Positions 40,388 through 56,850 of a DNA stretch of 64,000 nucleotides are shown here, in pieces. The position numbers and the translations under genes were made by a program. The stretch comes from an uncultured Pseudomonadota bacterium. GTDB lineage: Bacteria > Oederibacteriota > Muellerivitia > Muellerivitales > Muellerivitaceae. The notes below the pieces were generated by a model that saw only the letters and a program-made list of their open reading frames with translations, did not search any database and had not been told where the DNA came from. Location: positions 896,001 to 960,000 of the forward strand of contig CAWIIP010000002.1 of the NCBI GenBank assembly GCA_963836235.1. The letters run 5' to 3'. The number at the start of each line of letters is the position of its first letter. Positions within the stretch are counted from its first letter, which is position 1.

Positions 40388-41475
40388 TTTCTTTTCGCTT
40401 TTCGTGTTTGTTTTTTAGGAGGGCCCAGGAATATCTGGAAAGGATTTTCCCTCAACTTGGTTTGTCCCTCATCGACCCGAATGGTGGAAACCGCCACGGT
40501 AAAAAGAAGGGCGGCGAAGAAAAACAAGACCATGAAAAACAAGGCACGCTTTTCCGAAAGCCGCACCAGCACACCGGCGCAGGCCACGAGCAGGAATGAA
40601 AGGCTCCAAAGCGACCAAACGATAGGCTTCACCGACATGCCCAGGGCCCTCAGCCTCAAGGCCAGGTGGTCGTTGGACCCCCGGAACATGGAACGCCCTT
40701 TCAGGAATCTCAAAAACATCACCAGCGCCGTGTCGTAAAGGGGAATCCCCAAAATGAAAAGCGGTGCGCAAAGGGCGACAACGTTCACTTGGGTATAACC
40801 GTGGCCCATAGCAATGCCCGCCAGGATGAAGCCCAGGAAGAGCGCCCCCGAATCCCCCATATAGATTCGGGCCGGTTGGTAGTTGTAGGGCAGAAACCCC
40901 AGGACACTACCACCCAAGGCCGCCGCCGTCATTGGGACATAGCTTTGGGAGCCCAGGAAGGGGACAAAGACGAACCCCAGGCAGGCGATCACCGCCACCC
41001 CGCCCGCCAGTCCGTCCATGATGTCGATCAAGTTGACCGCATTCGTCACCGCCACCACCCAAAAGACCGTCAGAACCTTGGCCAGCCAGGGGTGACTCGG
41101 AAGAAACTCCAATTGGACTCCGAAAAAGATGAGCAGTGAAGCGGCCAGAATTTGGAATAGGAACTTGAGCGCCGGAGAGAGCGAAAAGAGATCGTCCGTC
41201 AGCCCCAAAATGGCGACCACCGTGCCCCCGGCCAAAAGGGCCAAAACCCGAGGTGAATCGGAAGGCGGAGACAGGATGATGGCCGAGAGAACCCCCAAAA
41301 GAAAGGAAAAGTAGATGGCCAGCCCCCCCATATAAGGAACCGGGGCGGTGTGCTTTTTCAGTTGGCCTTGGGGGCTATCTAAGAAGTGAGACCTTAAGGC
41401 TATTTTCCGGAAGAGGGGGGTCAACCCCAAGGAGAGGACTAAAGTGACGATGAAGATGATCCAGTTGGCGTCCAG
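40384..41475 (-). CDS. MraY/WecA-family polyprenyl-phosphate HexNAc-1-P transferase
   Basis: GLTDD, NLIDIMDGL, YMGDSG, DHL; frame extends to CTG 41475 with GGAGG RBS. Confidence 0.9.
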   Translation of the reverse strand: MDANWIIFIVTLVLSLGLTPLFRKIALRSHFLDSPQGQLKKHTAPVPYMGGLAIYFSFLLGVLSAIILSPPSDSPRVLALLAGGTVVAILGLTDDLFSLSPALKFLFQILAASLLIFFGVQLEFLPSHPWLAKVLTVFWVVAVTNAVNLIDIMDGLAGGVAVIACLGFVFVPFLGSQSYVPMTAAALGGSVLGFLPYNYQPARIYMGDSGALFLGFILAGIAMGHGYTQVNVVALCAPLFILGIPLYDTALVMFLRFLKGRSMFRGSNDHLALRLRALGMSVKPIVWSLWSLSFLLVACAGVLVRLSEKRALFFMVLFFFAALLFTVAVSTIRVDEGQTKLRENPFQIFLGPPKKQTRKAKRK

Positions 41476-41580
41476 GGGCGTCCTCCAGGCAGCGGATGGC
41501 TAATGTTTGGCTGTCTTGAGGCACTATAACACAAAGGCAAAGGGTGCCCAATTGGCTTAAAAAACATGGAAAAGGGCAAT

Positions 41581-41666
41581 AAAAAAGCCCCGGTGGGTCG
41601 GACCGAGGCTGGGAGGTGAGTGTTGATTTGTTTGAAAGCAAACCAGTTGTCGCTGGCCTACTTGCT
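41581..41666 (-). ncRNA. Candidate sigma54-dependent small RNA (~86 nt)
   Basis: -24/-12 promoter, 5' hairpin starting at predicted +1, CUCACCUCCC single-stranded linker, intrinsic terminator. Confidence 0.65.
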
Positions 41667-41677
41667 AACTATATAAG

Positions 41678-41692
41678 GCAATGTCCATGCCA
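41678..41692 (-). promoter_or_regulatory. Sigma54 -24/-12 promoter
   Basis: TGGCATG-GACA-TTGC versus consensus TGGCACG-N4-TTGC. Confidence 0.75.
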
Positions 41693-41763
41693 GTCCTTGT
41701 GCGGTTTTTCATGGCCAAAAAGCCTTATAATTTGAGGTTTTTCAAAAAAACCTAAAAAGTTAA

Positions 41764-41811
41764 GTGTAATTTATATTTACACTCAAAATATATTGTACAT
41801 ATTATTTACAC
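41764..41811. promoter_or_regulatory. Tandem enhancer-like palindromes (UAS)
   Basis: GTGTAA-N7-TTACAC (41764..41782) and TTGTAC-N7-TTACAC (41793..41811), about 100-145 bp upstream of predicted +1. Confidence 0.65.
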
Positions 41812-41944
41812 TTTTTCAAGTTTAATTTTAAACCAAATTCTTTATCTATTTGGCATGCATAAAGCAAAAAGTGTATAGCTTATGGATATTTACTTGTCTC
41901 TAGATTGCACGCCTTACTTCGGACCAAAAGGATAGAATTTCCGC

Positions 41945-42781
41945 ATGGATTATATTTCTTCAATCAATTTTATGCTCATTGTTATTGGTTTGGGTCTTTC
42001 TGCGGTTGGGGGTGGTATGACCTTTCTACCGCAAAATCATTTTGATAAAGGATTTGGAAGAACAATAAGAATAGGTATGGGATGGTTACTTATACTTTGG
42101 GGGTTAAGCCTTTCTGGGTATACGACTTATATTTTAATTCAAGGAAAAAGTACAGAACAAGCAACCATGTGGTTTGGGGGGGCCGCTCATCTAGTCCCAA
42201 AGATTGTTCCAACTCCACGCCCAAAAGCCAGAAAAGAAACGGAAATTAAAAAGCAAAACGAAACCCAAGCTTCTTGTGAAGCTGTTTCAATTTGGTTTAA
42301 TGACTCTCAACCTCAACCAGAATTCAACATTTATCCAGATAGCAAGGATGGTGATACATTACAACCGAAATTAGAACTGAAGTTTTATGTTGATTGCTTC
42401 AATAAAACAAATGAAGAAAGAGATTTAACTTTTTTGCCATACCTTCAAGGAGGTAATCTCCCAGCAAATTGGAAAGTGATTGGTGTTGGGATATATCAAA
42501 TAAGCGGGGCGGAAAAAGATATTCCAGGCCCCAAAATTGTCGTGGCTCCGAAAACACACTTCTTATTCAATGCTCTTGTGGAGATTGGTACGGAAGATAT
42601 GAATACGCCCGCATTTTATGAATCTTTCAAAACGTTAAGTGAAAAAGTAACTTTTACTTTAACCGTTAAAACCGAGGAAGACGAAACTTGTACAACAGCT
42701 CAAACCATTTCTATAAGGGACGGGTTTCGAATAAATTTCGAACATAATCATCAAGACATTACGAAAAATTGGAGTAATTAG
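41945..42781 (+). CDS. AT-rich hypothetical membrane protein
   Basis: Two N-terminal TM segments, 278 aa. Confidence 0.6.
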   Translation: MDYISSINFMLIVIGLGLSAVGGGMTFLPQNHFDKGFGRTIRIGMGWLLILWGLSLSGYTTYILIQGKSTEQATMWFGGAAHLVPKIVPTPRPKARKETEIKKQNETQASCEAVSIWFNDSQPQPEFNIYPDSKDGDTLQPKLELKFYVDCFNKTNEERDLTFLPYLQGGNLPANWKVIGVGIYQISGAEKDIPGPKIVVAPKTHFLFNALVEIGTEDMNTPAFYESFKTLSEKVTFTLTVKTEEDETCTTAQTISIRDGFRINFEHNHQDITKNWSN

Positions 42782-42863
42782 AATATTCATGCGTAAGGTG
42801 ATTATGCCTGCCTAAAGCTTTCGAAGGGCTCTTCGCAATGACTACCAAAGATATCGTTGGCTT

Positions 42864-44741
42864 CTACTCCACCCCAATCCCATACTTCCTTATCTTCTGA
42901 TAAAGCGTCGGGCGGCTGATACCCAACCGAGTAGCGGCTTGCTTTTTGTTGAAGTGGGATTCCTGCAGAACCCGAAAGATCAAATCCTTTTCCCCTGATT
43001 CAAGAACGCTGTTCGCCGGAAGCTTTTCCATCGTCTTAGAAGCGGGGTTCTTTGCGCCAGTCAGCTCCTCCGGGAGGTAGGCGGGCTTGATCAGCACGTC
43101 GTCGTTCAAGGTCACGATACGCTCGATGACGTTCTCCAGTTCCCGCACGTTCCCGGGCCAGCGGTGTTGCCGCATGATCGCCAGGGCTTCCTCGGAAATA
43201 CCCTCGAACCTCGTGGGCCGCTTGGCCTTCAAGCGGTCGAGAAAGTATTTCACCAATAGCGGAAGGTCGCCTTCCCTATCCCTGAGCGGCGGCATCTCGA
43301 TGACGATGACGTTCAGCCGGTAAAACAAGTCTTCCCGGAAATGGCCTTCCTTGATGGCCTGCTTCAAATCCCGATTCGTGGCGGCTATGACGCGGATATC
43401 GATCTTGACCGTCCCCGTCCCGCCCACCCGCTCGAATTCCCTTTCCTGGAGCACCCGCAGGAGCTTGACCTGGGTGGAAAGGGAGATTTCGCCGATCTCG
43501 TCCAAGAAAACGCTCCCCTGGTCGGCGGCCTCGAACTTCCCGATCTTTTGCCCAATGGCCCCGGTGAAGGACCCCTTCTCATGCCCAAAAAGCTCGCTTT
43601 CCAGGAGGGATTCACTAAGAGCCGAGCAAGCGATGGGCACGAAGGGCCTATCATGCCGCGCCGATTGCTGGTGGATGGAGCGGGCCACCAGCTCTTTCCC
43701 CGTGCCGTTTTCCCCCAAAATAAGCACGGTCGCGTCGCTGGCGGCCGCCCGTTTGATGAGGTCCTGAATGCGCTGCATGGGCGGGCTGTTGCCGATGAGG
43801 AGGCTTTCTTCCGCCGGGCGGCTTTTTTGCGCAGCGGCCACCGACACCATGGACTTGGAGAGGGCGAAGAGGATGGAGGCGGCGTTTTTGGAGGATTTCA
43901 CGAACTCCTCATAGTCTTCCTTCATGCGCCCGGTCAGCCCTTCGTTAAAATAAACTTGTCCCAGGTTATAGATGGCGTTCACATGGTCGGGATTTACCTT
44001 CAGCACATCTTTGAATTCGGTAATGGCTTTTTCCAGTTCCCCCTTTTTAAAATAACAAATCCCGAGGTCATTCTGGATGTTCAGCCTTTCCTCCCCCGCG
44101 GGTAATATCTTGAGGGCCTTGCGGTAAATCTTGATGGCTTCGTCGTACCGCTCCAAGGCCATCAGGCATTCCCCCAGGCTTCCCAACGCCGGGACGTTGC
44201 GGGGGTTGGAGTCGATGACCGATTGGTATTGCTCCAGGGCCTTTTCCAACTCGCCCCTTTCCTTGAACAGCGCCCCCATGTTCATTCGGCATTGGAAGGA
44301 CAGGCTTTCGGCCGTGTGGAAAAGCCCCAGGTAAAAACTGCCGGGCGTCAGGGGATGGACCAGGTGAAGGGTCTCCATGAAGGAAAACATGGCGTCATTG
44401 ACATGCCCCCTTTTCATGTGGATCAGCCCCATGTTGAAATGGACGTCCAGGAGCGAGGGATGGATTTTCAGGGCCTTTTCGTAATAGTCCAGGGCGGCGA
44501 CAAAATCCTGCAAATGAAAAGCCGCGTGGCCCGCGTCCCGAAGGGCGAAGGCGCTGAAGGGGTTTTTCTTGACCACCGATTTGAACAGCTTGAGGGCCTT
44601 TTCGTACTCGCCCTCCTCGAAGGCGGCCACCCCTTCTTCCGTGGCCTTCTCAATGGGCTCATGGGCGGCCCCACAAACCGGGCAAAAGCGGTGTTCTTCG
44701 TCCAGGGGATTCCCGCATTCGCGGCAGATGATGTCGGCCAT
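42864..44741 (-). CDS. Sigma54 enhancer-binding protein: zinc ribbon + TPR + AAA+ + Fis HTH
   Basis: CREC..CPVC, TPRs, [53 protein letters not shown]. Confidence 0.93.
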
Positions 44742-44744
44742 GCC

Positions 44745-45161
44745 TTAGCTCCCCCGTTTCTTCGTCTTGGGTGACGATTTTTGGGGAGTGCCTGGCTTTT
44801 TAACCGGCTTTCCGGCGGGCGCCGTAAGCTTTTCGATCTGGAGGGTGATCAAATGGTTCGCCTGCGGATGCTCGGCGTAACGCTTTTTCAGCTTGAGGTA
44901 CCAAGCCAGGGCTTCTTTGAGCTTCCCGGCCTTTTCCAGCTTATAGCCCTTGCGGAATTCCTTCTCGAACTCGATGAAACGCAGTTGGTCCGCCTCGGAT
45001 AAATGGGTGGTCCAGAGGAACCCCGAAGCGGTCAGAGCCGCCAGGGTCATCAAATAGATGAAGTAGGGAGGGAAAGCCAGGACGCCCAGGAGGTTGACAA
45101 TCGTCAGGCCGCCCCAGTCGACGTTTTTCAGCATGGTCTTTTGCAAGCGCGCTACCCCCAC
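44745..45161 (-). CDS. Small membrane protein with TPR-like helix pair
   Basis: Two TM segments; 3 bp upstream of the activator start; own start uncertain. Confidence 0.6.
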   Translation of the reverse strand: MGVARLQKTMLKNVDWGGLTIVNLLGVLAFPPYFIYLMTLAALTASGFLWTTHLSEADQLRFIEFEKEFRKGYKLEKAGKLKEALAWYLKLKKRYAEHPQANHLITLQIEKLTAPAGKPVKKPGTPQKSSPKTKKRGS

Positions 45162-45186
45162 AGACGGTCATGGTATGGTTCCAAAA

Positions 45187-45205
45187 GTGTAATTTTATTT
45201 TACAC
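45187..45205. promoter_or_regulatory. Third copy of the GTGTAA-N7-TTACAC palindrome
   Basis: Same half-sites and spacing as 41764..41782, upstream of the activator operon. Confidence 0.65.
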
Positions 45206-45215
45206 CCAAGGGCAT

Positions 45216-45249
45216 AAAAAAAGCCCTGGTTCTTTCGAACCAGGGCTTT
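45216..45249 (-). terminator. pnp intrinsic terminator
   Basis: AAAGCCCTGGTTC-TTTC-GAACCAGGGCTTT plus U-tract. Confidence 0.85.
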
Positions 45250-45262
45250 GGGACGCTAAAAG

Positions 45263-47374
45263 TTAAAGTTTTTTGTAATCGGCGATGTTCAAACCAAGGG
45301 CTTCCTTGCGGGAAAGCTTGATCTTCTTGGTCTTCGGGTCGATCCCGATGCACTTGACCAAGAGTTCGTCGCCTTCCTTCAGGACGTCCTCGACCCGCTC
45401 CACGCGGCCCTTGTCCAATTGGGAAATATGAACCAGGCCGTCGGTGCCCGGCAGGATCTCGACGAAAGCGCCGAAGTCCATGATCTTCTTAACCGTGCCG
45501 AAATAAATTTTTCCCTCTTCGGCCTCGGCCATCAGCCCGTCGATAAAGGCCTTGGCCTTTTCAATAGAGGCTCCGTTGGGAGAGGCGATATTCACCGTAC
45601 CATCGTCTTCCACATTGATTTCAACTTGGAAATCTTCCGTGATTTTTTTGATCATCGCGCCGCCTTTGCCGATGATGTCCCGAATCTTATCCACCGGAAT
45701 CTTGATGCTGACGATCCGTGGGGCATAGGGCGAAAGGGTCGTGCTGGGGGAGGTCATGGTCTTATCCATGATGTCCAAGATGGTCAAACGGCCCTGCTTG
45801 GCCTGCGCCAAGCCCTTCTCGATGACCTCGAAAGGCAGGCCTGTGATCTTGATGTCCATCTGGATGGCAGTGATGCCCTTGCGGGTACCGGCCACCTTGA
45901 AGTCCATGTCGCCAAAATGGTCTTCCAACCCTTGGATGTCGGTCAGGATGGCGTATTTGGTCATGTCCGCGTTGGAAACCAACCCTAAGGCCACGCCCGC
46001 GCAGGGGCTCTTCAAGGGCACGCCCGCGTCCATCATGGACAGCGAACCGCCGCAGACCGAAGCCATAGAGGAGGAACCATTGGATTCCAGAATGTCGGAG
46101 GAGACCAGGATGGTATAGGGGAAAGCGTCCAGCGACGGGAGCAATGGCTCCAGCGCCCTTTCCGCCAGGTTGCCATGGCCGATCTCGCGGCGGCCGGGGC
46201 CCGAGAGGCGCTTGATCTCACCCACCGAGTAGGGCGGGAAATTGTAATGAAGCATGAAACGCTTTTTCTGCTCGCCTTCCAGCTCTTCCAAAATCTGCTG
46301 GTCTTCTTTGGTGCCGAGGGTGGTGACCACCAGGGCCTGGGTTTGGCCGCGGGTAAAGAGGGCCGAACCATGCGTGCGGGGCAGAACCTTCACTTCGCCC
46401 GTGATGGGGCGGAACTCGTCCAGCTTGCGTCCGTCCTGGCGCTCGTGGCGGTCCAGGATGGCTTCACGGACCAGGTCGGACTCGATGCCGTGGATCAGTC
46501 CCGAAATATCCTTGTCCTTCTCGGGGAATTTTTCTTTCAAGGCTTCGACTGTTTCTTTTCCAACGTGATGGATGCCTTCTTGGCGCTTGAGCTTGTCTTT
46601 TTCGGCCATAGCAGCCTTCATCTTAGGCAAGGCGAAGGCCTTAACGGCGGCAGCCAAATCCTCCGGCGGCCTGACCAGGGTCAAGGCACGCTTGGGTTTG
46701 CCGGCTTTCTTGACCAGTTCTTCCTGCAGGTCGATGATCTTTTGGCATTCTTTATGGGCCAGTTTGATGGCTTCGTACAGGACCGATTCGGATTCCTCGT
46801 CGGCTCCGCCCTCGACCATCACGACCGCCTTGCGACTGGCGGCGACAACGAGGTCCAGGGTGCTTTCTTCCATTTGCTTGAAGGTCGGGTTGACGACCAG
46901 GTCGCCCTTGATGCGGCCCACGCGGACGCAGCCGAACATGTCGGCCACCGGGATATCGGAAACGGCCAAGGCCGCTGAAGCCGCGGAAACGGCCAGCACG
47001 TCCGAGTCGTTTTCTTGGTCGGACGAGATGACGGTGCAATGCATTTGGACTTCGTTGAAGAACCCATCCGGGAATAAGGGACGGATAGGCCTGTCGATCA
47101 GGCGGGAGGTGAGGATTTCCTTGGTGCGGGGACGGCCCTCGCGCTTGAACCAGCCTCCGGGAATGCGGCCCGCGGAAGAGGACTTCTCGCGGTACTCGAC
47201 GGTGAGGGGGAAAAAGTCTTTGCCCGGCATGGGATCCTTGGCGCCGACCACGGCCACCAGGACCACAGTTTCGCCATATTGGGCCAGGATCGACCCATCG
47301 GCCTGCTTGGCCATACGGCCCGTTTCGAAAGATAAAGTCGCTTGAGACAATTTACAGCTGACGCGTTCCATCAT
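45263..47374 (-). CDS. pnp: Polyribonucleotide nucleotidyltransferase
   Basis: DFFPLTVEY, GSALFTRGQTQ, ESNGSSSMAS, GDMDFKVAG, KH and S1 domains. Confidence 0.98.
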   Translation of the reverse strand: MMERVSCKLSQATLSFETGRMAKQADGSILAQYGETVVLVAVVGAKDPMPGKDFFPLTVEYREKSSSAGRIPGGWFKREGRPRTKEILTSRLIDRPIRPLFPDGFFNEVQMHCTVISSDQENDSDVLAVSAASAALAVSDIPVADMFGCVRVGRIKGDLVVNPTFKQMEESTLDLVVAASRKAVVMVEGGADEESESVLYEAIKLAHKECQKIIDLQEELVKKAGKPKRALTLVRPPEDLAAAVKAFALPKMKAAMAEKDKLKRQEGIHHVGKETVEALKEKFPEKDKDISGLIHGIESDLVREAILDRHERQDGRKLDEFRPITGEVKVLPRTHGSALFTRGQTQALVVTTLGTKEDQQILEELEGEQKKRFMLHYNFPPYSVGEIKRLSGPGRREIGHGNLAERALEPLLPSLDAFPYTILVSSDILESNGSSSMASVCGGSLSMMDAGVPLKSPCAGVALGLVSNADMTKYAILTDIQGLEDHFGDMDFKVAGTRKGITAIQMDIKITGLPFEVIEKGLAQAKQGRLTILDIMDKTMTSPSTTLSPYAPRIVSIKIPVDKIRDIIGKGGAMIKKITEDFQVEINVEDDGTVNIASPNGASIEKAKAFIDGLMAEAEEGKIYFGTVKKIMDFGAFVEILPGTDGLVHISQLDKGRVERVEDVLKEGDELLVKCIGIDPKTKKIKLSRKEALGLNIADYKKL

Positions 47375-48460: not shown

Positions 48461-51400
48461 TCAGTGAATGACCACAACCTTGCCCGTTTTCCGAAGAGAC
48501 TGGGGCCCGTTGCCGGCTTGGATGACGTAAATATACAAGCCGCTGGCCACCGAGTTATCCGATTGGTTCTCAAGATTCCAGATGATCTTGTTCAAACCGC
48601 TTTGACCTAAGATATCGGCTTGATAAACCAGCTCACCCGTGACGGTGAACAATTCCAATTGAACTTGTGAAGCTGAAGGTAAAGTAACCTCAAAATCAAT
48701 GGGAGTTCCATTCTTTGAGATGTTTGGAACAGCTTTGGCAAATGAAGCGCTCGATTGACATGCTGGAGTCGAGGTTGAACCTGCACTCAATCCGCTTCCT
48801 TCCTGTACCGCGGCCGCTACCAGCCGGGGTGTCGGGCTGGATGTTGGCGTACGAGTTGGCGTAGAGGTCCTAGTATTGGTGGGCGTTTTCGTGTCCGTAG
48901 CGGTGTGGGTGTTGGTAGGTGTCTTCGTCGCCGTCTTAGTATCGGTCGGCGTAGGAGTATTCGTCGGCGTACGAGTGGGCGTAGAGGTCCTAGTATTGGT
49001 CGGTGTCTTCGTGTCCGTGGCGGTATGGGTACTGGTAGGTGACTTCGTCGCCGTCTTAGTATCGGTCGGCGTAGGAGTATTCGTCGGCGTACGAGTGGGC
49101 GTAAAGGTACTAGTATTGGTCGGCGTATGGGTAGGCCTATGAGTATGGGTGCTGGTTGGCGTAATAGTAGCCGTCTCGGTAGCGGTGCTACTGGCCGTCC
49201 GGGTCGTGGTAAGCGTCGGCGTGGAGGTTGCGGTAGCCGTAGCCGAGTTTGTGGGTGTATTGGTCGCCGTATTGATAGCCGTGCTGGTGGCGCTATTCGT
49301 GACCGTGAAAGTTGGCGTCACGGTGGGCGAATTGGTGGCCGAAGAAGTAGGCGTAAGGGTTGCCGTTTTCGTCGCCGTGAAGGTAATGGTTGGCGTCGGG
49401 GTCAAGGTCGGCGAACCGATCGCGGAGCCGCCGGATGTGCAAGGGGCGAATTGATCCACTTGGTTCGCTCCCTGTTCCGCCACATAGAGGGTTCCGTTGT
49501 TGGTAGCCAAACCTTCCGGATTCATGAAGCCGCTTCCAGCGCCGGAGGTCACCCCTTCCAGGGTTCCCTGTTCGTTGTAGACCGCGACCAAGCTGACGCC
49601 ATCGGACACGTAAACCAAGCCCGTCACGTTATCCACCGTGATAAAGCCTGGGCCCTGGAGGCCTGAGGAAGTGGTGTTCCATTGGCTCAGAAGATTTCCC
49701 TGGTAATCAAACACGGAGACCGTTTCGGCGTCGTAATCCGTCACGTAAACGTTGCCGTTGCCATCCACCGACACGCCCGTGGGAGCTTGGAAGGCCGTGG
49801 GTGTCCCCGCGATTCCAGTGCTGCCCCATTGGTTCAAATAACCGTTGGTTGGGTTGAAAGACTCTATCCGGCCGTTGCCGAAGTCCGCCACATAGAACGT
49901 GGTTCCGGCGTTGTTTGCCCCGATACCCCAAGGTTCGTTGAACTGTCCGTTTCCGAAACCCGTGCCGCCAAATTGCGCGACTGGTGTGCCGTAAAGGGTG
50001 AACTCGTCGATTTGGTTGTCATAGAAGTCCACGACGAAGATGTCGTTCCCGGCGATGGCCAGGCCGTTGGGTTCGCCAAAGGCATAGCTGCCGGTCCCGC
50101 TCCAGGGCGTCAAAGCCGCCCCGGTGGCCGAGTAAACATCGATCTGGTTGTTGGTGTTGTCGGCAATATAGACATTACCGCTGGCGTCCAAAGCCAAGCC
50201 ATAGGGGCTTCCAGCCGCCAAGGTCTGGTTCTGGCCGCAAGCCAATGGGGCGTTGTTAGGCGTGGCGGTAGGCGTGGGGATGCTCGAGCAAGGAGCAATC
50301 AACCGGATATTATCCAGGTAAAAGTTCCCTTTCCCATTGGTGGAATTATTGTTGTAGATGAACCTGATTCCAGTCGTGGAACTTCCCACACCCGTTATAA
50401 GGAATGTCACGCTCTGCTGTCCTGCGACAATACCCACCGTATTTGAAATAGTCGAATAATTTTGGTCCACTATTTCCAGTTGGGAATAGGTCGACCCAGC
50501 CACCAAACTCGGATCCACATAGAGATCCATAACCAACTGGCCCACATTTGTCCAATTCGTGATCGGAATCCCGGACAGGATCATCGCCTGGTCGTTCCAA
50601 CCCGCGGCGGTGTTGATGTTTACATCCAGGGAAGTCAATCCTTGGGTCACGTGCGATTTGGACAGGCTGAAGGTCGCGTTCGATCCGCTCCAAGTCCCAC
50701 CCTGGGTCAAGCTCTCGCAACCGTTGAGCAGCTCGGGGCATGTCGCCACGAACACGGGGATGTTGATAGTCACGTCATTCATCCAAATAGTAACCGGCGC
50801 GGTGGCGTTCAGCACCTGTATACCCAATTGTTCAACATCGGACGGGGTCCCCGGGCTCATGGTGAAGCTGACTTGAGTCCAAGAAGAGGACAAACTGTTC
50901 TGGTAAGATCCGCCGTCCCATGAGTAACCCGACCCGCTTTGGTCGAATACCTGGAGGTTTCCTGAACCCGAGGCCTTGTACCAGAAGCTAATGGTACTTC
51001 CGGCGGGGATGGATACGGCCGATGGGAATTGCAAGCCGATGTCCTCACCGCCAGCACCCACCACGGGAAGAATCACTTCCAATGATCCCGTTCCACCAGT
51101 CAAAGGATAGGGATTGGCCGGGTCCACCTGAACAATCGCCCCGGCAGGTCCATTAAACGCTGTCCAACCCTGGGTACAGCCACCGAAGGTATAAGTGGGT
51201 TGTAAGGAAGCCACGCAAGCCGTCGGTGTGGCCGTAGGCGGCATGGTCGGCGAGCCGATCGGCGAGCCCCCGGAGGTGCAAGGCGCGAATTGATCCACTT
51301 GATTCGCTCCCTGTTCCCCCACGTACCAGGTTCCGTTGTTGGCAGCCAAACCTTCCGGATCCTGGAAGCCGCTTCCGGCGCCGGAGGTTACCCCTTCAAA

Positions 51401-54400
51401 TGTTCCCTGCGTGTTATAGACCGCGACCAGGCTGTTGCCATCGGACACGTAAACCAGGCCCGTGGTGTTATCCACCGCGATGAAGCCGGGTCCTTGAAGG
51501 ACTCCTTGGGCGCTCCATTGCCGAAGGAGATTACCCTGATAGTCAAACACCGACACGGTTTGGGCGTCGTAATCCGTCACGTAAACATTGCCGCTGGCGT
51601 CCACCGCGATACCCGTGGGCGCTTGGAAGGGAGTGGTTCCCGTAATTCCACTGGCTCCCCATTGGCTTAAATAGGTACCCGCGGGGCTGAAAGCCTCCAC
51701 CCGGCCGTTGCCGAAGTCCGCCACATAAACCGTGGTTCCGGCGCTGTTGGCCCCGATTCCCCAAGGTTCGCTGAATTGTCCGTTACCGCTGCCCTGGGTT
51801 CCCCATTGGGCGACGGGCGTACCGTTGAGGGTAAACTCGTCGATCTCGTCGTCATAATAATCCACCACGAAAAGGTTGTTCACGGCGACGGCTAGGCCGT
51901 TGGGTTGCCCAAAGGAATAGCTGCCGTTCCCGTACCATTGGCCCATGGAAGCTCCCGTGGCCGAGTAAATATCGATCTGGTTGTTCGTGTTGTCGGCGAT
52001 ATAGACATTGCCGCTGGCGTCTAAGGCCAAGCCATAGGGGCTTCCCGCCGCCAAAGTTTGGGTCTGGTTGCAGGCCAAGGGCGCGAAGGTAGGTGTAATA
52101 GTGGCCGTCGGCAAGATGGGGTTGGAGATGAGCCAGCCCTGCACATCGGCAGTGATCGTGCTCCAGCCATTGCCTGAACCGCCCGTGCCAATTTGGAACC
52201 CGATCTGAACCACTTGGGTCGGGTCAAAACCGCCTGACAAAGTACTGGGGACTGTCATCGTGAAGGTGACGCATCCCGAATCATTCCCCGTGGCCGATCC
52301 AAAGTAGGTGCCGGTTTGCTGATAAACACCGGCGTAGCCTTGAGCTGAACCGTCTTGTAAATAGATCTGGCCGTAATACTGGGGAGCGTTGGAATCGAAC
52401 CCGTTGCTGATATCGGCGACCATCGTGATCACCTTGCCCGCGAAGTTCGTGGGAACGCCGAAACCTTTTTCCACGTTGTAAGTTTGGTTGATCCCGGTGA
52501 AGGGAGGCTGTATTTCCAAGGCGCCGGTGGAGCCGCCATAGCAACTATCGGCGGGCGCGGGATTAAAGGCGACCGACCCGCTGATGATTCCTCCCGAATA
52601 TTGGTTGACGCTCCAGCTGCTGACATCCGCGGTGGAATTAAAGGTATAAGAGGAAAGTGGAACCGGGGTGCCGGTGGGGGTGGGGGTGTTTAAAACTTTC
52701 GGCGTGGCGTTGGAGAAAAGCCAGCCCTGAACATCGGCCGTGATCGTGCTCCAACCTGTGCCACCACCGCCCGTGCCGATTTGGAACCCGATCTGAACCA
52801 CTTGGGTCGGGTCAAAGGAACCGCTGATGCCGCTGGGGACCGTAAATGTGAAGGTGACGCATCCCGAATTGTTCCCGGAGGCGGACCCAAAGCTGGGTTG
52901 GGTGGAATAGGCGCCTGCGTAACCCTGGGCGGCACCGTCCTGTACGTAGATTTGGCCCCAATACTGGGCCGCGTTGGAGTTAAAGTTGTTGCTGATGTCG
53001 GCGATCATCGTGATGGACTTGCCCGCGAAATTCGTGGGACCCGCCAAACCCTTTTCCACATTGTAATTTTGGTTGGCCCCGGTGAAGGGAGGCATCACTT
53101 CCAATGCTCCGGTAGAACCGCCGTAACAACTGTCGGTTGGCGAAGCGTTATAGGCGACCGACCCGCTGATGAGCCCTCCCGAATATTGGTTGATGCTCCA
53201 ACTGCTGGCATCCGCGCTGGAATTGAAGGTATATCCGCCGTTCAGAGACAGGCGGGTGCTGGTGGGCGTGGGTGTGGAGGTGGGGCCCCCGCTGTTTTCG
53301 GTCAGGCACATCTGGCCGACCCAGAAGGTCATCGGTGAGGAATTGGCCGCGTCGGTCTGGAACTTGATGCCGTTGCAATTCGCCAAAGCCTGTGCCTCGG
53401 TGGGAATGGCATCAGGAGATCCCGTGGGCCAACTGCTGTACTGCCGGACAAAAGAAGAGTAAGGAATCGTCACCAATTGCCATGTGTTAGGCGTCGACAC
53501 TTGGATGGCGTAACTATAATCGGCGTAATCCCCGGTGGTAGCGTTGTCAATGATGGGATTGGCGAATTCAACTAAAACCGTGGTTTGGACGCTTGCCATA
53601 AAATAGAACTGAAGGTTGTTCAAGCCGCTGAAGTTCTGGACGCTGCCGAAAGTGGCCTCTTCCCCAAAGCCGCCCGACGAAGGGTTCGTTCCCGACAATT
53701 GCAAAGCGTAGGCGGGTCCATTCGCGACCGGGCTCACCACTCCCGTTGAAGCGGTGTTTGCGCCGCCGCCATAGTTGTAAGAATAGAAGGACGTTCCTAA
53801 ACTATCCGTCACAACTCCGTTCCCGAAATTAGAGGAATACACGCAGGAACCCGCCGGAATCGGTGTGGGAGTGATGAAGACGGTAGGCGTAAAGGTGGGC
53901 ACGGAGCCAGGGATAAGCCAATTCTTGACTGCGACTCCCCAAGCCGACGGGGCGAAATTCCAATTGGCCAAAAGGTCCGGCGGCGTATCGGTGTTCATGG
54001 ACCAAGCGGTGGCTCCTACCACACCCGTGGTGGTGACGGCCCAGCCCGAGGGACCGATCATGTTGTTGTCAAAGGTGCCGTTGTCGCTGTCGTTGCTGGC
54101 ATCTGGACCCATTTCACCAATGAAAACAGGAACGGTGGTAAGGACCGAAGACGGAACGCTGGCGTTCCAGCTGGAGGCTGCGATGCCGTCGTTGCTGCCG
54201 TAAAGATGCGCTGAATAAACCACGCCGTTGCCGGGGTTGGCCACGGGATAGTTCACGACGCCAGTCAAGTCCGAGCACCAGGCCAAGCCGCCCATCAAGC
54301 AAACATTGTTTGCGCCCGTTCCACGGACCGCGTTTAAGAGGGCCTGCATGCCTGGTGTCGTAAAGGAACCATTATTCGAGCCGCCATTGAACCAAGTATT

Positions 54401-56233
54401 CCAAGCATTGGTGTCATCCGTGCCGCTGGGGCTGGTGCTGTAAGGCTCGTTGTAAAGGTCGAAGAGAACTGCCGGATTGTTGGCGTAGGTGGAAGCCAAT
54501 GAGCTCCAGAAGGTGATGGCGTTGGCGTCCGCCATGAACTGTTGCTTGGTGTTGAGGTCGTTACCCCATCCGGTTCCGCAAGGCGCGGTGGCGGTCGAGG
54601 AAGTCCCGGACCAATGCAGGTCCAGGATCACGTAGACCCCGTGGTTGAAGGCGTAATCAACGATTTGATGGACCTTGCTCTGGTAAGCCGCGGAACCCGC
54701 GCCCGAACAGCCGAACCATTCATCCTGGTTCAGGGGGAAGCGCATGATAGTGGCGCCCCAGGCCGTGACCGCTTCCTGCTCGGTTTTCAAGATCGAGCCG
54801 CCAATCCCGCTCGGCGGGCCCTCGCCGATGTAAGCCGAACCGTCATACCATTCTAAGCTGTCGATGTCGACGCCCTTTAGGACGGCGGGAGAGCCGTTCG
54901 CCAAAAGGGAATTTCCGGAGACCGAAAGGGATGGCGGACCGCTGGTGGGAGTGCGCGTAATGGTGGGCGTGATGGTCGCCGACTGCCTTTTTGATAAATA
55001 GGCGGATTGGTAAACCCAACCCTGCACATCAACCGTGACCGTATTCCACGCCGTTCCGGAACCGCCCGTGCCGATTTGGAATCCGATTTGAACCACTTGG
55101 GTCGGGTCAAAGGATCCGCTCAAAGAACTCGGAACCGTAAAGGTAAAAGTGACGCATCCGGAATCATTGCCCGACGCGGAGCCAAAGCTGGTACCCGTAT
55201 TTTGATATACCGAAGCGTAACCTTGGGCAGGTCCATTTTGTAAATAAATCTGACCATAATATTGGCCCGCGTTCGAGTTGAATCCGTTGCTGATATCAGC
55301 CACCATCGTGATGGCCATACCGCTAAAGTTGGTCGCCCCAGCCAAGGCATATTCGACATTATAAATTTGGTTGGCGGCCGTAAAGGGAGGTTGGATTTCC
55401 AGGGCTCCGGCAGAGCCGCTGTAACAGCTATCGGCGGGAGAAGAATTAAAACCGACCGATCCGGTGATGAGTCCACCCGAATATTGGTTAATGCTCCATC
55501 CGCTGATATCCGCGCTCGAATTGAAGGTATAACCGGTGGAACCGGGTGAAAGTGGACCAATAGTCGCTGTCGGGGTAACGGTAGGAGTGGGCGTCAAGGT
55601 AGGCGTCGGTGTGTTGGTCGGATAGACCCAGCCTTGAACATCCACCGTGATGGTATTCCACGCCGTACCGCCGCTGCCGGTGCCGATTTGGAATCCTATT
55701 TGAACCACTTGGGTCGGGTCGAAGGATCCACTCAAAGAACTTGGGACCGTAAAGGTAAAAGTAACGCAGCCGGAATCATTTCCCGTGGCGCTCCCGAAGC
55801 TGGTTCCGGTGGACTGATAGACCGAAGCGTAACCTTGAGCGCTCCCATCCTGCAAATATATCTGGCCGTAATACTGGCCCGCGTTCGTGGCAAATCCGTT
55901 GCTAATATCAGCCACCATCGTGATTGACTCGCCCGCAAAATTAGTGGGACTCGCCAACCCATAATCCACGTTATAAATTTGGTTGGCCGCGGTAAAGGGC
56001 GGCTGCACCTCCAAGGCACCCGTGGAACCGCCAAAACAACCATCGGCGGGGGCGGGATTATAGGTTACCGATCCGGTAATCAAGCCACCCGAATAGATGT
56101 TAATCCCCCAATTACTGATATCCGCGCTTGAATTAAAAGTATAGCCGGAAAGACTTTGCGCCCATGTCCATCCCGGGCCTAATGCGATTAGGAGAAAGAG
56201 TAAGCTAGAATATTTTTTGAGATAAGAAGTCAT
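48461..56233 (-). CDS. Giant secreted multidomain GH5 protein (four repeated CBM-like domains, GH5, further CBM-like domains, two NHL propellers, Thr/Pro stalk, T9SS-type/FlgD Ig C-terminus)
   Basis: LDLHW, FDLYNEP, IGEMG; NHL repeats P.GIAVD..GNVYV.D; ASGLYIY C-terminus; start ATG 56233. Confidence 0.88.
48846..49125. repeat. 120-bp tandem repeat (about 2.3 copies) in the Thr/Pro stalk
   Basis: Lines 48901 and 49021 are nearly identical; 40-aa unit. Confidence 0.8.
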
Positions 56234-56850
56234 TAGTTTTCCTTTGGGCAAAAGGTTGCAAAAATAATTCTTGGCGACAATAAAAAAAAATAAAAAAATT
56301 GTCAAAGAGATTTTATTGAATTAATTTTGGCGGGTTTAGAATGGTACTTTTTTTGACAGAATAATCAATAAAACTTTTTGTAAATCTTTCACCCGTTTTA
56401 AAAAACGTTTTTTGGTTTTCCGTTAAAGATATTTGTAGTTTTTTTGTCATTAACAAAAAACATTTTAGGGCGATTCCTTATTTTTACGAAGAACCAACGC
56501 CTTTCTTCGTTAAATCGAAGAGTCTAAAATTTAGACTTGTAAAAACAAAAAATGAAACCGGTTCAAGCTTTATTTTTAAAAAAATGGATTAAAGCCCACT
56601 GAGTCGAGAAAGGATAAACACAGAACAACAAATAATAAAAAAATTATCAAAACAGAAAATAAATATTTCCAATTTCGGGCGAGAACTTTCGAGAGGAAAC
56701 CGACATTAATATTTATTCAAGAGGGGAAGTTAAAAGGAACGAATCAAAAAAGTCGTCTTATTTTCTTCCCAAGCACTGAAATAAAAAAACGCAATAAAAA
56801 TACCTTCGGGAGTATCTTGAAAAGGCAGAAGAAAGAAAAAATACTAAAAC

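Follow-up and report, generated by a model that had tools for sequence, protein, structure and literature searches.

A conserved sigma-54 activator locus with a candidate small RNA predicted to pair with the start of pilin mRNA

In Myxococcus xanthus, a sigma-54-type small RNA (sRNA) gene, pxr, lies directly downstream of the enhancer-binding-protein gene nla19; Pxr is a multi-stem-loop RNA for which we know of no mRNA target. The crcZ gene of Pseudomonas is located just downstream of cbrB, and qrr1 of Vibrio adjoins luxO, whose product represses its own expression. Pilin synthesis in Pseudomonas, Myxococcus and Geobacter is governed by PilS-PilR, with PilR being a receiver-domain regulator that activates the pilA promoter directly. 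Passages of a study on CbrB (PMC6296734) describe direct activation via upstream sites, helped by a bending protein, and call CbrB ‘barely dependent on phosphorylation’. For LuxO-Qrr, this bacterial enhancer-binding protein (bEBP) and sigma-54 are reported to transcribe short base-pairing sRNAs (PMC10162802), and activation of the Arp sRNA of Acinetobacter baumannii is tentatively ascribed to BfmR rather than to sigma-54 (PMC12338739). Here we describe a locus (41581..45205) in a 64,000-nt stretch of DNA, referred to as the window, from an uncultured bacterium of soil and peat in the GTDB family Muellerivitaceae (assembly GCA_963836235.1, contig CAWIIP010000002.1, positions 896,001 to 960,000), where a candidate sRNA gene is found beside a sigma-54 promoter, palindromic sites and the gene of an enhancer-binding protein. 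Comparison of related genomes makes it probable that this is a sigma-54 module with an Hfq-independent RNA that represses pilin translation: the RNA is complementary to the beginning of the pilA mRNA and changes together with it in evolution, and would thus most likely shut off pilin synthesis. Coordinates without a contig name are those of the window, G000 denotes the window’s own genome (3.97 Mb, 99.4% complete), and gene calls in the relatives are crude lists of open reading frames (ORFs).

The candidate sRNA gene occupies about 86 nt of the minus strand (41581..41666) and combines a hairpin at the 5′ end with a single-stranded seed and an intrinsic terminator. Read from 41666 to 41581, the 5′ hairpin is followed by about 25 unpaired bases that close with CUCACCUCC, and then by a 9-bp terminator hairpin (41586..41610, minus) with a T-run behind it; a consensus scan also found this terminator. 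The 86-nt RNA folds with a minimum free energy of -28.1 kcal/mol (z = -3.56), and one of 200 shuffled sequences was equally stable. The original prediction had described an 86-nt unit of 5′ hairpin, unpaired anti-Shine-Dalgarno (anti-SD) segment and terminator behind a promoter that faces no credible ORF, and both statements stand. An 88-aa ORF (41375..41641, minus) does overlap the region, and the plus strand carries an SD-like GGGAGG followed by GTG/TTG codons, so one may ask if a small protein is encoded on either strand, or if the RNA sequesters a protein in the manner of CrcZ or RsmY. The 88-aa ORF has no Pfam match, the segment from AAUCAA to CUCACC varies by indels of 1-8 nt that disrupt every frame and, not being multiples of three, indicate that the RNA stretch is untranslated, and the RNA lacks a repeated protein-binding motif; we assign these two options an almost negligible probability. 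The RNA reading of the unit is further supported by its structural covariation. Among 31 aligned orthologues, pairing is kept in 96% of the cells and compensatory changes occur at 9 of the 14 pairs, values that none of 500 shuffles matched. Searching the whole window with Rfam 15 at gathering score gave one tRNA only and nothing on the RNA gene, and at E up to 10 the region 41480-41900 gave seven weak matches, none meaningful on the RNA. The Rfam search and the test for covariation in relatives had been proposed with the original prediction, and both results agree with it.

A covariance model (R1), built from an alignment of 20 loci, matches the RNA in the window at 41578..41666 (97.6 bits, E = 3.8e-18). 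It finds one copy per genome in 29 of the 30 family genomes and in the single genome of the sister family, the sole family genome without a match being 63% complete. All elements of the 20-locus alignment are in register, from the end of the activator gene (...LYQKIRKYG) through both palindromes, an AAGGSTTTTT box and the -24/-12 promoter to the RNA. Just one of 67 genomes in the rest of the phylum has a match (E = 2.5e-4), which is a bare terminator behind a gene. Weak matches in G004 (two) and G089 were rejected as lone terminators after genes, without promoter or seed, and a second match in G000 (E = 0.01) was rejected as the pnp terminator (45214-45307). No paralogue of the RNA was found in G000 using blastn-short, making it single-copy. 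With a 301-nt DNA query covering sites, promoter and RNA, we found matches in 18 of 24 family genomes, in the one sister-family genome and in none of 15 other genomes of the phylum. A scan of public contigs with the consensus pattern returned 20 loci, including one in Actinoallomurus; this match, in Actinoallomurus soli, is a chance lone terminator after a gene, again without promoter or seed, and was discarded.

The gene order around the RNA is conserved on one strand in 16 relatives as rpsO, pnp, a small-protein gene, the activator gene, the RNA, a family-4 glycosyltransferase gene and an amine-oxidase-like gene. Because a Glycos_transf_4 gene lies 90-220 nt past the RNA in 13 of 16 contexts (a count from the ORF list), the RNA might be a cis-acting leader or attenuator of the operon formed by the last two genes. 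This adjacency is little informative, as the block from rpsO to the operon is wholly syntenic. The terminator keeps nine pairs and a run of five to nine T in all 31 loci, and the folding of the RNA showed no alternative anti-terminator fold. Downstream of the terminator is a sigma-70-type extended -10 element, TGTGTTATAGT (41523..41533, minus), which recurs in relatives as TGTTATAGTGC; conserved between RNA and glycosyltransferase gene, it indicates that the operon has its own promoter. In addition, the neighboring ORF in G002 and G009 is not a gene of the glycosyltransferase’s size on the same strand. A cis-acting role is therefore very unlikely in our view, and the strong terminator together with the conserved extended -10 promoter before the next gene points to a transcription unit of its own, from which an RNA of about 86 nt would be transcribed.

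Transcription of this unit is predicted to start at 41666 from a sigma-54 promoter, TGGCATGGACATTGC (41678..41692, minus), with GG at -24 and GC at -12 in the spacing of the consensus TGGCAC-N5-TTGC. The strict pattern TGGCA[CT]-N5-TTGC[ATC] occurs 21 times in the 3.97-Mb genome, with about 11 occurrences estimated by chance, which makes a lone match weak; a -24/-12 promoter nevertheless occupies this position in each of the 31 orthologous loci examined, with G025 reading ATGC. The gene for sigma-54, rpoN, is present (Sigma54_DBD match of 214 bits in a 510-aa frame, C5:123290-123766). Upstream of the promoter are two TGT-N11-ACA palindromes: enhancer site 2, GTGTAATTTATATTTACAC (41764..41782), has its center at -107, and enhancer site 1, an imperfect and weaker copy (41793..41811), is centered at -136, 29 bp from site 2. 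Both distances are within the roughly 80-150 bp usual for sites of sigma-54 activators. A third site, GTGTAATTTTATTTTACAC (45187..45205), is centered 62 nt upstream of the small-protein ATG, just past the pnp terminator. Genome-wide, the exact GTGTAA-N7-TTACAC occurs only at 41764 and 45187 (0.23 expected). At least one enhancer site is kept in all 17 contexts scanned (G000 included) and two are kept in 11 of them at no more than two mismatches, while the third site is kept in 16. The promoter, the palindromes at enhancer distance and again upstream of the activator operon, and the presence of rpoN were all part of the original prediction or of the checks suggested for it, as was conservation in orthologous loci. 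Each was borne out; the genome scan for more sites, likewise suggested, gave the exact pattern nowhere else. The combination originally proposed, of a sigma-54 promoter, shared sites, an activator with tetratricopeptide repeats (TPR) and an RNA with an anti-SD segment, is a module conserved in the family and the sister family. The conserved AAGGSTTTTT box (41716..41726, minus, in the 20-locus alignment), centered near -55, is possibly a site for a DNA-bending protein. As a separate observation, TGTA-N9-TACA occurs nine times in the whole genome compared with about 58 expected from base composition, which may reflect TA depletion.

The seed region of the RNA, UUUGCUUUCAAACAAAUCAACACUCACCUCCC (41611..41642, minus), is complementary to the mRNA of the type IV major pilin gene pilA from the SD sequence to codon 7, taking in the start codon and the first six codons. 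This gene is located 180 kb outside the window (G000:C2:716967, minus strand) in a cluster ordered pilB-pilT-pilC-pilA-pilM-pilN-pilO, with pilC identified as T2SSF. Its product is a type IV pilin (N_methyl, E = 2.9e-9) with a short leader, the prepilin motif G-F-T-L-I-E and a hydrophobic N-terminal helix. The pilA sequence GGGAGGuuuuuAUGAUUCGUUUGAAAGCAAA faces UUUGCUUUCAAACAAAUCAAcacucaCCUCCC of the RNA; the mRNA reads GGGAGG-uuuuu-AUGAUUCGUUUGAAAGCAAA and the RNA UUUGCUUUCAAACAAAUCAA-cacuca-CCUCCC, with AAACAAAUCA and CCUCC as parts of the seed. The duplex of the RNA with the pilA initiation region comprises 25 bp at -34.7 kcal/mol, compared with a mean of -12.1 (sd 2.7) and a best value of -21.4 kcal/mol among 1000 shuffles. 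No TGTAA-N7-TTACA was found near pilA in the genome pattern scan, and the gene has its own sigma-70-like element, TTGACA-17-TAAAAT, upstream; any control of pilA by the activator would hence run via the RNA. Neither Hfq nor ProQ was detected in the 99.4%-complete genome, where PF17209 for Hfq (positive in five reference genomes used as a control) and the ProQ family gave no match. Between pilA and pilM there is also a 120-aa ORF without a Pfam family (C2:716450-716512 region; L061 4105-4467, minus).

The RNA and pilA also vary together across genomes. The family consensus of the RNA, GCUUUCAAACGAAUCA, is the exact reverse complement of UGAUUCGUUUGAAAGC, which is the pilA start in most genomes. 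In 25 of 28 genomes, pairing covers at least 14 of the 20 positions compared, and two or three Watson-Crick pair types occur at eight of the 20 positions, such as AT in 22, GC in three and TA in one genome at -3, GC in 16 and AT in 10 at +5, and AT in 19 and GC in five at +8. Cognate RNA-pilA combinations sum to 446, compared with a mean of 417.1 (sd 4.6) for permuted ones, and no permutation in 10,000 reached that value. When each genus is represented by a single genome (n = 14), the cognate sum is 220 versus 206.2, a score that three of 10,000 permutations attain. The changes can be followed in single lineages: pilA AUGUUUCGU is opposite RNA ACGAAACAU in G012, AUGGUUCGU opposite ACGAACCA in G003 and G019, AUGGUUCGGAUG opposite CAUCCGAACCA in G011, GAAGACUAA opposite UUAGUCAUC in genus g10, and UUUAAAA opposite UUUUAAA or UUAAA in G002 and genus g5. 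The RNAs of G017 and G025 contiguously match the SD-spacer instead. Searched with zero mismatches, the 17-mer of G012 is confined to a single pilin start and to the place opposite the RNA gene; one mismatch adds two further pilin starts, and a reversed control pattern gave one match at up to two mismatches. In several genomes, two to four pilin paralogues begin identically and are thus probably all targets of the RNA. With its conserved seed, the RNA qualifies as a candidate trans-acting base-pairing sRNA that would block initiation, and we consider the assignment of pilin as its target to be new, with good comparative support.

Long perfect complementarity, like the 17 nt in G012, would also be produced by an inverted duplication, leaving the RNA gene as a relic of an inverted copy of the pilA 5′ end with another function or none. 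Such a relic would decay independently of pilA, whereas eight positions carry compensatory double changes across genera, cognate combinations exceed permuted ones, and the match has shifted to the SD-spacer in G017 and G025. We find this origin barely credible as an explanation of the match. A broader activity is somewhat less improbable. The 3′ end of 16S rRNA reads CACCUCCU, and CUCACCUCC, nearly invariant in the RNA, equals the anti-SD; with 13 GGAGGTGAG sites in the genome, the RNA could mimic the 16S 3′ end and regulate leaders bearing GGAGG or GGAGGUGAG, pilA being one target among many. In contrast to what this would imply, the most conserved and co-varying stretch, AAACGAAUCA, matches pilA codons and not the anti-SD, and the anti-SD itself is altered in G017, G025 and G015. 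The initiation regions of the activator and small-protein mRNAs pair poorly with the RNA (-10.8 and -14.0 kcal/mol, respectively), and these weak duplexes also led us to reject a feedback of the RNA on its own activator operon. We judge the broad regulator unlikely. The original label of an anti-SD small RNA thus holds in part: CUCACCUCC is present and unpaired, but it makes up no more than the 3′ third of a longer seed, one with specificity for the region where pilA starts, and the RNA is not a generic anti-SD RNA.

Several points weigh against a dedicated sigma-54 and RNA control of pilin. The pilA match is not unique in G000, as six genome sites reach at least 18 of 20 positions against the 20-mer with G-U pairs allowed; among these, pilA alone is shown at an ATG preceded by GGGAGG. 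By raw duplex energy over 12,022 crude start sites, the ranks ahead of pilA, itself at about 12th, are taken by spurious ORFs rich in G and U, and pilA was the one plausible gene that this ranking brought up. A segment of the seed, UUUGCU, is located in the 3′ arm of the 5′ hairpin, which must open, and G000, G001, G016 and G075 have an uncompensated C-A mismatch (A in the RNA, C in pilA). Codons 2-7 of pilA are also constrained by the protein, so that part of the conservation is not driven by the RNA; synonymous-site fixation in these codons is mildly above that of later codons. On the DNA side, binding of the palindromes by the adjacent activator is suggested by adjacency and conservation, the GAFTGA loop of the activator reads GSFTGA, a one-residue variant, and beside the third site there is no conserved -24/-12 element or promoter. 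For this last reason we read the third site as an operator, presumably autoregulatory, that would act on a sigma-70 promoter. We also considered whether the activator operon has a sigma-54 promoter and rejected this: the GGGTAG-N5-TTGC of G000 is poor and would place the start at the ATG, and the strict pattern is found there in G001 only, which makes it non-conserved.

Weighing these points, we still favor pilin repression through the RNA, which could proceed as follows. The enhancer-binding protein, with its zinc-ribbon and TPR input and coupled to the small membrane protein, would bind the two TGTAA-N7-TTACA sites at -107 and -136 and fire the -24/-12 promoter, giving a terminated RNA of about 86 nt. 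Through the single conserved third site, it would regulate its own operon, probably by repressing a sigma-70 promoter. The RNA would pair in trans with the SD, start codon and first six codons of the pilA mRNA and block entry of the ribosome (30S) without involvement of Hfq, such that firing of the activator leads to less pilin. The signal would be received by the TPR and zinc-ribbon part, perhaps with the small membrane protein. Both the sites’ binding protein and the sign of regulation are predicted here from sequence. The terminator loop of the RNA contains GACCC (41590-41598, minus), invariant in all 31 orthologues. A GGGTC is found at -90..-20 in 19 of 35 pilin leaders (L062-L122), 35-56 nt before the ATG, with about 0.07 expected per such interval; GGGUC is lacking from genera g2 and g12 and from some of g5, though the GACCC loop is invariant. 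Speculatively, the two may form a second contact; otherwise, GGGUC may be a leader motif that has nothing to do with the RNA.

The enhancer-binding protein (625 aa, 42864..44741, minus) comprises Zn_Ribbon_1, TPR, Sigma54_activat, AAA_lid_14 and HTH_8 domains. Residues 1-300 consist of Zn_Ribbon_1 and the TPR repeats; the AAA+ domain (Sigma54_activat PF00158, E = 1.7e-71) has Walker A and B motifs, with GENGTGKE and VFLDEIGE, and the C-terminal Fis-type helix-turn-helix (HTH) covers residues 581-620 (HTH_8, E = 8.5e-13). No receiver domain (Response_reg) is among the best 25 of 39 Pfam matches, and with no N-terminal receiver the protein is, by domain content, not an NtrC-type two-component response regulator; its absence suggests that the activator is phosphorylation-independent. 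Labels in databases, among them ‘NtrC family response regulator’, were assigned automatically and are generic. The gene upstream (44745..45134, minus; 129 aa plus stop) is translationally coupled to the activator gene, ending 3 nt before its ATG, and encodes a small membrane protein that is conserved. This protein has a hydrophobic N-terminal third, no Pfam match, and a conserved start, MLKK-DWGG, with 37 invariant columns in 14 of 16 relatives’ contexts. The Pfam domains and the 3-nt gap agree with the original prediction of an activator that is coupled to a small membrane protein and whose input is a zinc ribbon with TPR, not a receiver. A complex prediction of the small protein (40-106) with the TPR part (1-300) scored 0.01 and was not used as evidence either way.

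Outside the family, the activator appears with a different output. Its N-terminal 300 residues have full-length matches of 51-93% identity in nearly every RNA-bearing genome, except for G010 and G072 (gene split or partly matched) and G014 (63% complete, weak match only), and full-length matches of 27-33% identity in many other families. Ten distant loci (L123-L132) were compared, and eight of them carry a conserved ORF of about 62 aa (MTYxCxVKxGHxGAG...GVKKG) behind the activator gene and no RNA; a -24/-12-type promoter was found by pattern in seven. These distant homologues end in another HTH tail (...VALWKKMKKLGI), and repeated sites of GTTAAC type are present at most of the loci. Different tails beside different sites fit with each activator binding its own neighboring sites. 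The ~62-aa protein belongs to no Pfam family and has no tblastn match in G000 at E < 0.1. The module thus looks phylum-wide, with an apparent swap of output from the ~62-aa protein to the RNA in the window’s order. The RNA may have replaced the protein at the same position, the protein version being carried by at least eight genomes of other families. One could extend the scheme further and see the small membrane protein and the TPR activator as a sensor of the pilin inventory, combined with the swap of protein for RNA and the contact of GACCC with GGGUC: unassembled pilin in the membrane would be sensed by the small protein, freeing the TPR activator to make the RNA and turn pilin translation off. 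We regard this extension as distinctly unlikely. If it is true, feedback of the PilS-PilR kind would have a counterpart here that works post-transcriptionally and without a receiver.

Some features of the window are outside the conserved module. The end of the activator gene is directly upstream of the enhancer sites in most relatives, and the 1-kb gap in the window is a strain-specific insertion with a GC content of 0.36. It contains a plus-strand gene (41945..42781) for a 278-aa protein with two hydrophobic N-terminal stretches and no Pfam match (GC content 0.37). This gene is absent here from the 16 relatives’ contexts and has homologues at other loci in two of 30 family genomes. It is preceded by a sigma-54-like TGGCATGCATAAAGC (41851-41865, plus) directed away from the shared sites, so the inserted gene may have been captured under the same activator. 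Pfam searches with the three proteins that lack a family, of 129, 278 and about 62 aa, gave a single match, DUF4288 at E = 0.11 to one of them. In G020, a same-strand 268-aa ORF (L034 3252-4058) is located between the activator gene and the enhancer sites, and the sequence just before the sites resembles the end of HTH_8, suggesting a truncated second copy of the activator. A 2614-aa ORF (48461-56305, minus) is found a few kb past pnp.

Among the publications listed in our literature searches, none pairs a TPR activator with an sRNA; those listed on candidate division FCPU426 are, by titles and abstracts, ecological or taxonomic and include no RNA work; and a single sRNA repressing the translation of pilA was found (a 2025 preprint). 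If our reading is correct, a candidate phylum without a cultured member gains a circuit in which every part is named, from the input protein and the DNA sites through promoter and RNA to the mRNA that is targeted. The target was predicted from intermolecular covariation and not from the energy in a single genome, which is rare for sRNAs of uncultured bacteria. Less usual aspects are that the control of type IV pili by sigma-54 is predicted to be rerouted via an RNA, that the enhancer-binding protein combines zinc-ribbon/TPR input with a small membrane protein as dedicated partner, and that, within one phylum, a tiny protein output has apparently been replaced by an RNA at the same promoter position.

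The locus shares features with each of the known systems. Like cbrB-crcZ, it has an enhancer-binding protein that would activate a sigma-N-dependent sRNA promoter, although CbrB has a receiver domain, CrcZ is a protein sponge of about 400 nt, and an all-Rfam scan showed no sequence relation. The arrangement of an sRNA gene behind an activator gene recalls nla19-pxr, where the Rfam scan likewise showed no sequence relation (inclusion of a Pxr model in Rfam was not ascertained). LuxO-Qrr resembles it in that a bEBP and sigma-54 drive a short base-pairing RNA. That system uses a phosphorylated receiver, depends on Hfq and controls master regulators, in contrast to the absence of a receiver and of an Hfq match, the single copy and the structural-gene target here. 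The comparison with Arp concerns action on pilin and the terminator loop, where, according to PMC12338739, a C-rich motif contributes; Arp is from an unrelated lineage, the main seed here is linear with 25 bp, and the likeness is one of description. Neither pilS nor pilR was found in the pil cluster. The locus and PilS-PilR nevertheless have in common that a sigma-54 enhancer-binding protein governs, or here would govern, the level of the major type IV pilin. Unlike PilR, the activator described here has no site near pilA, and its effect on pilin is predicted to run through the RNA with a negative sign.

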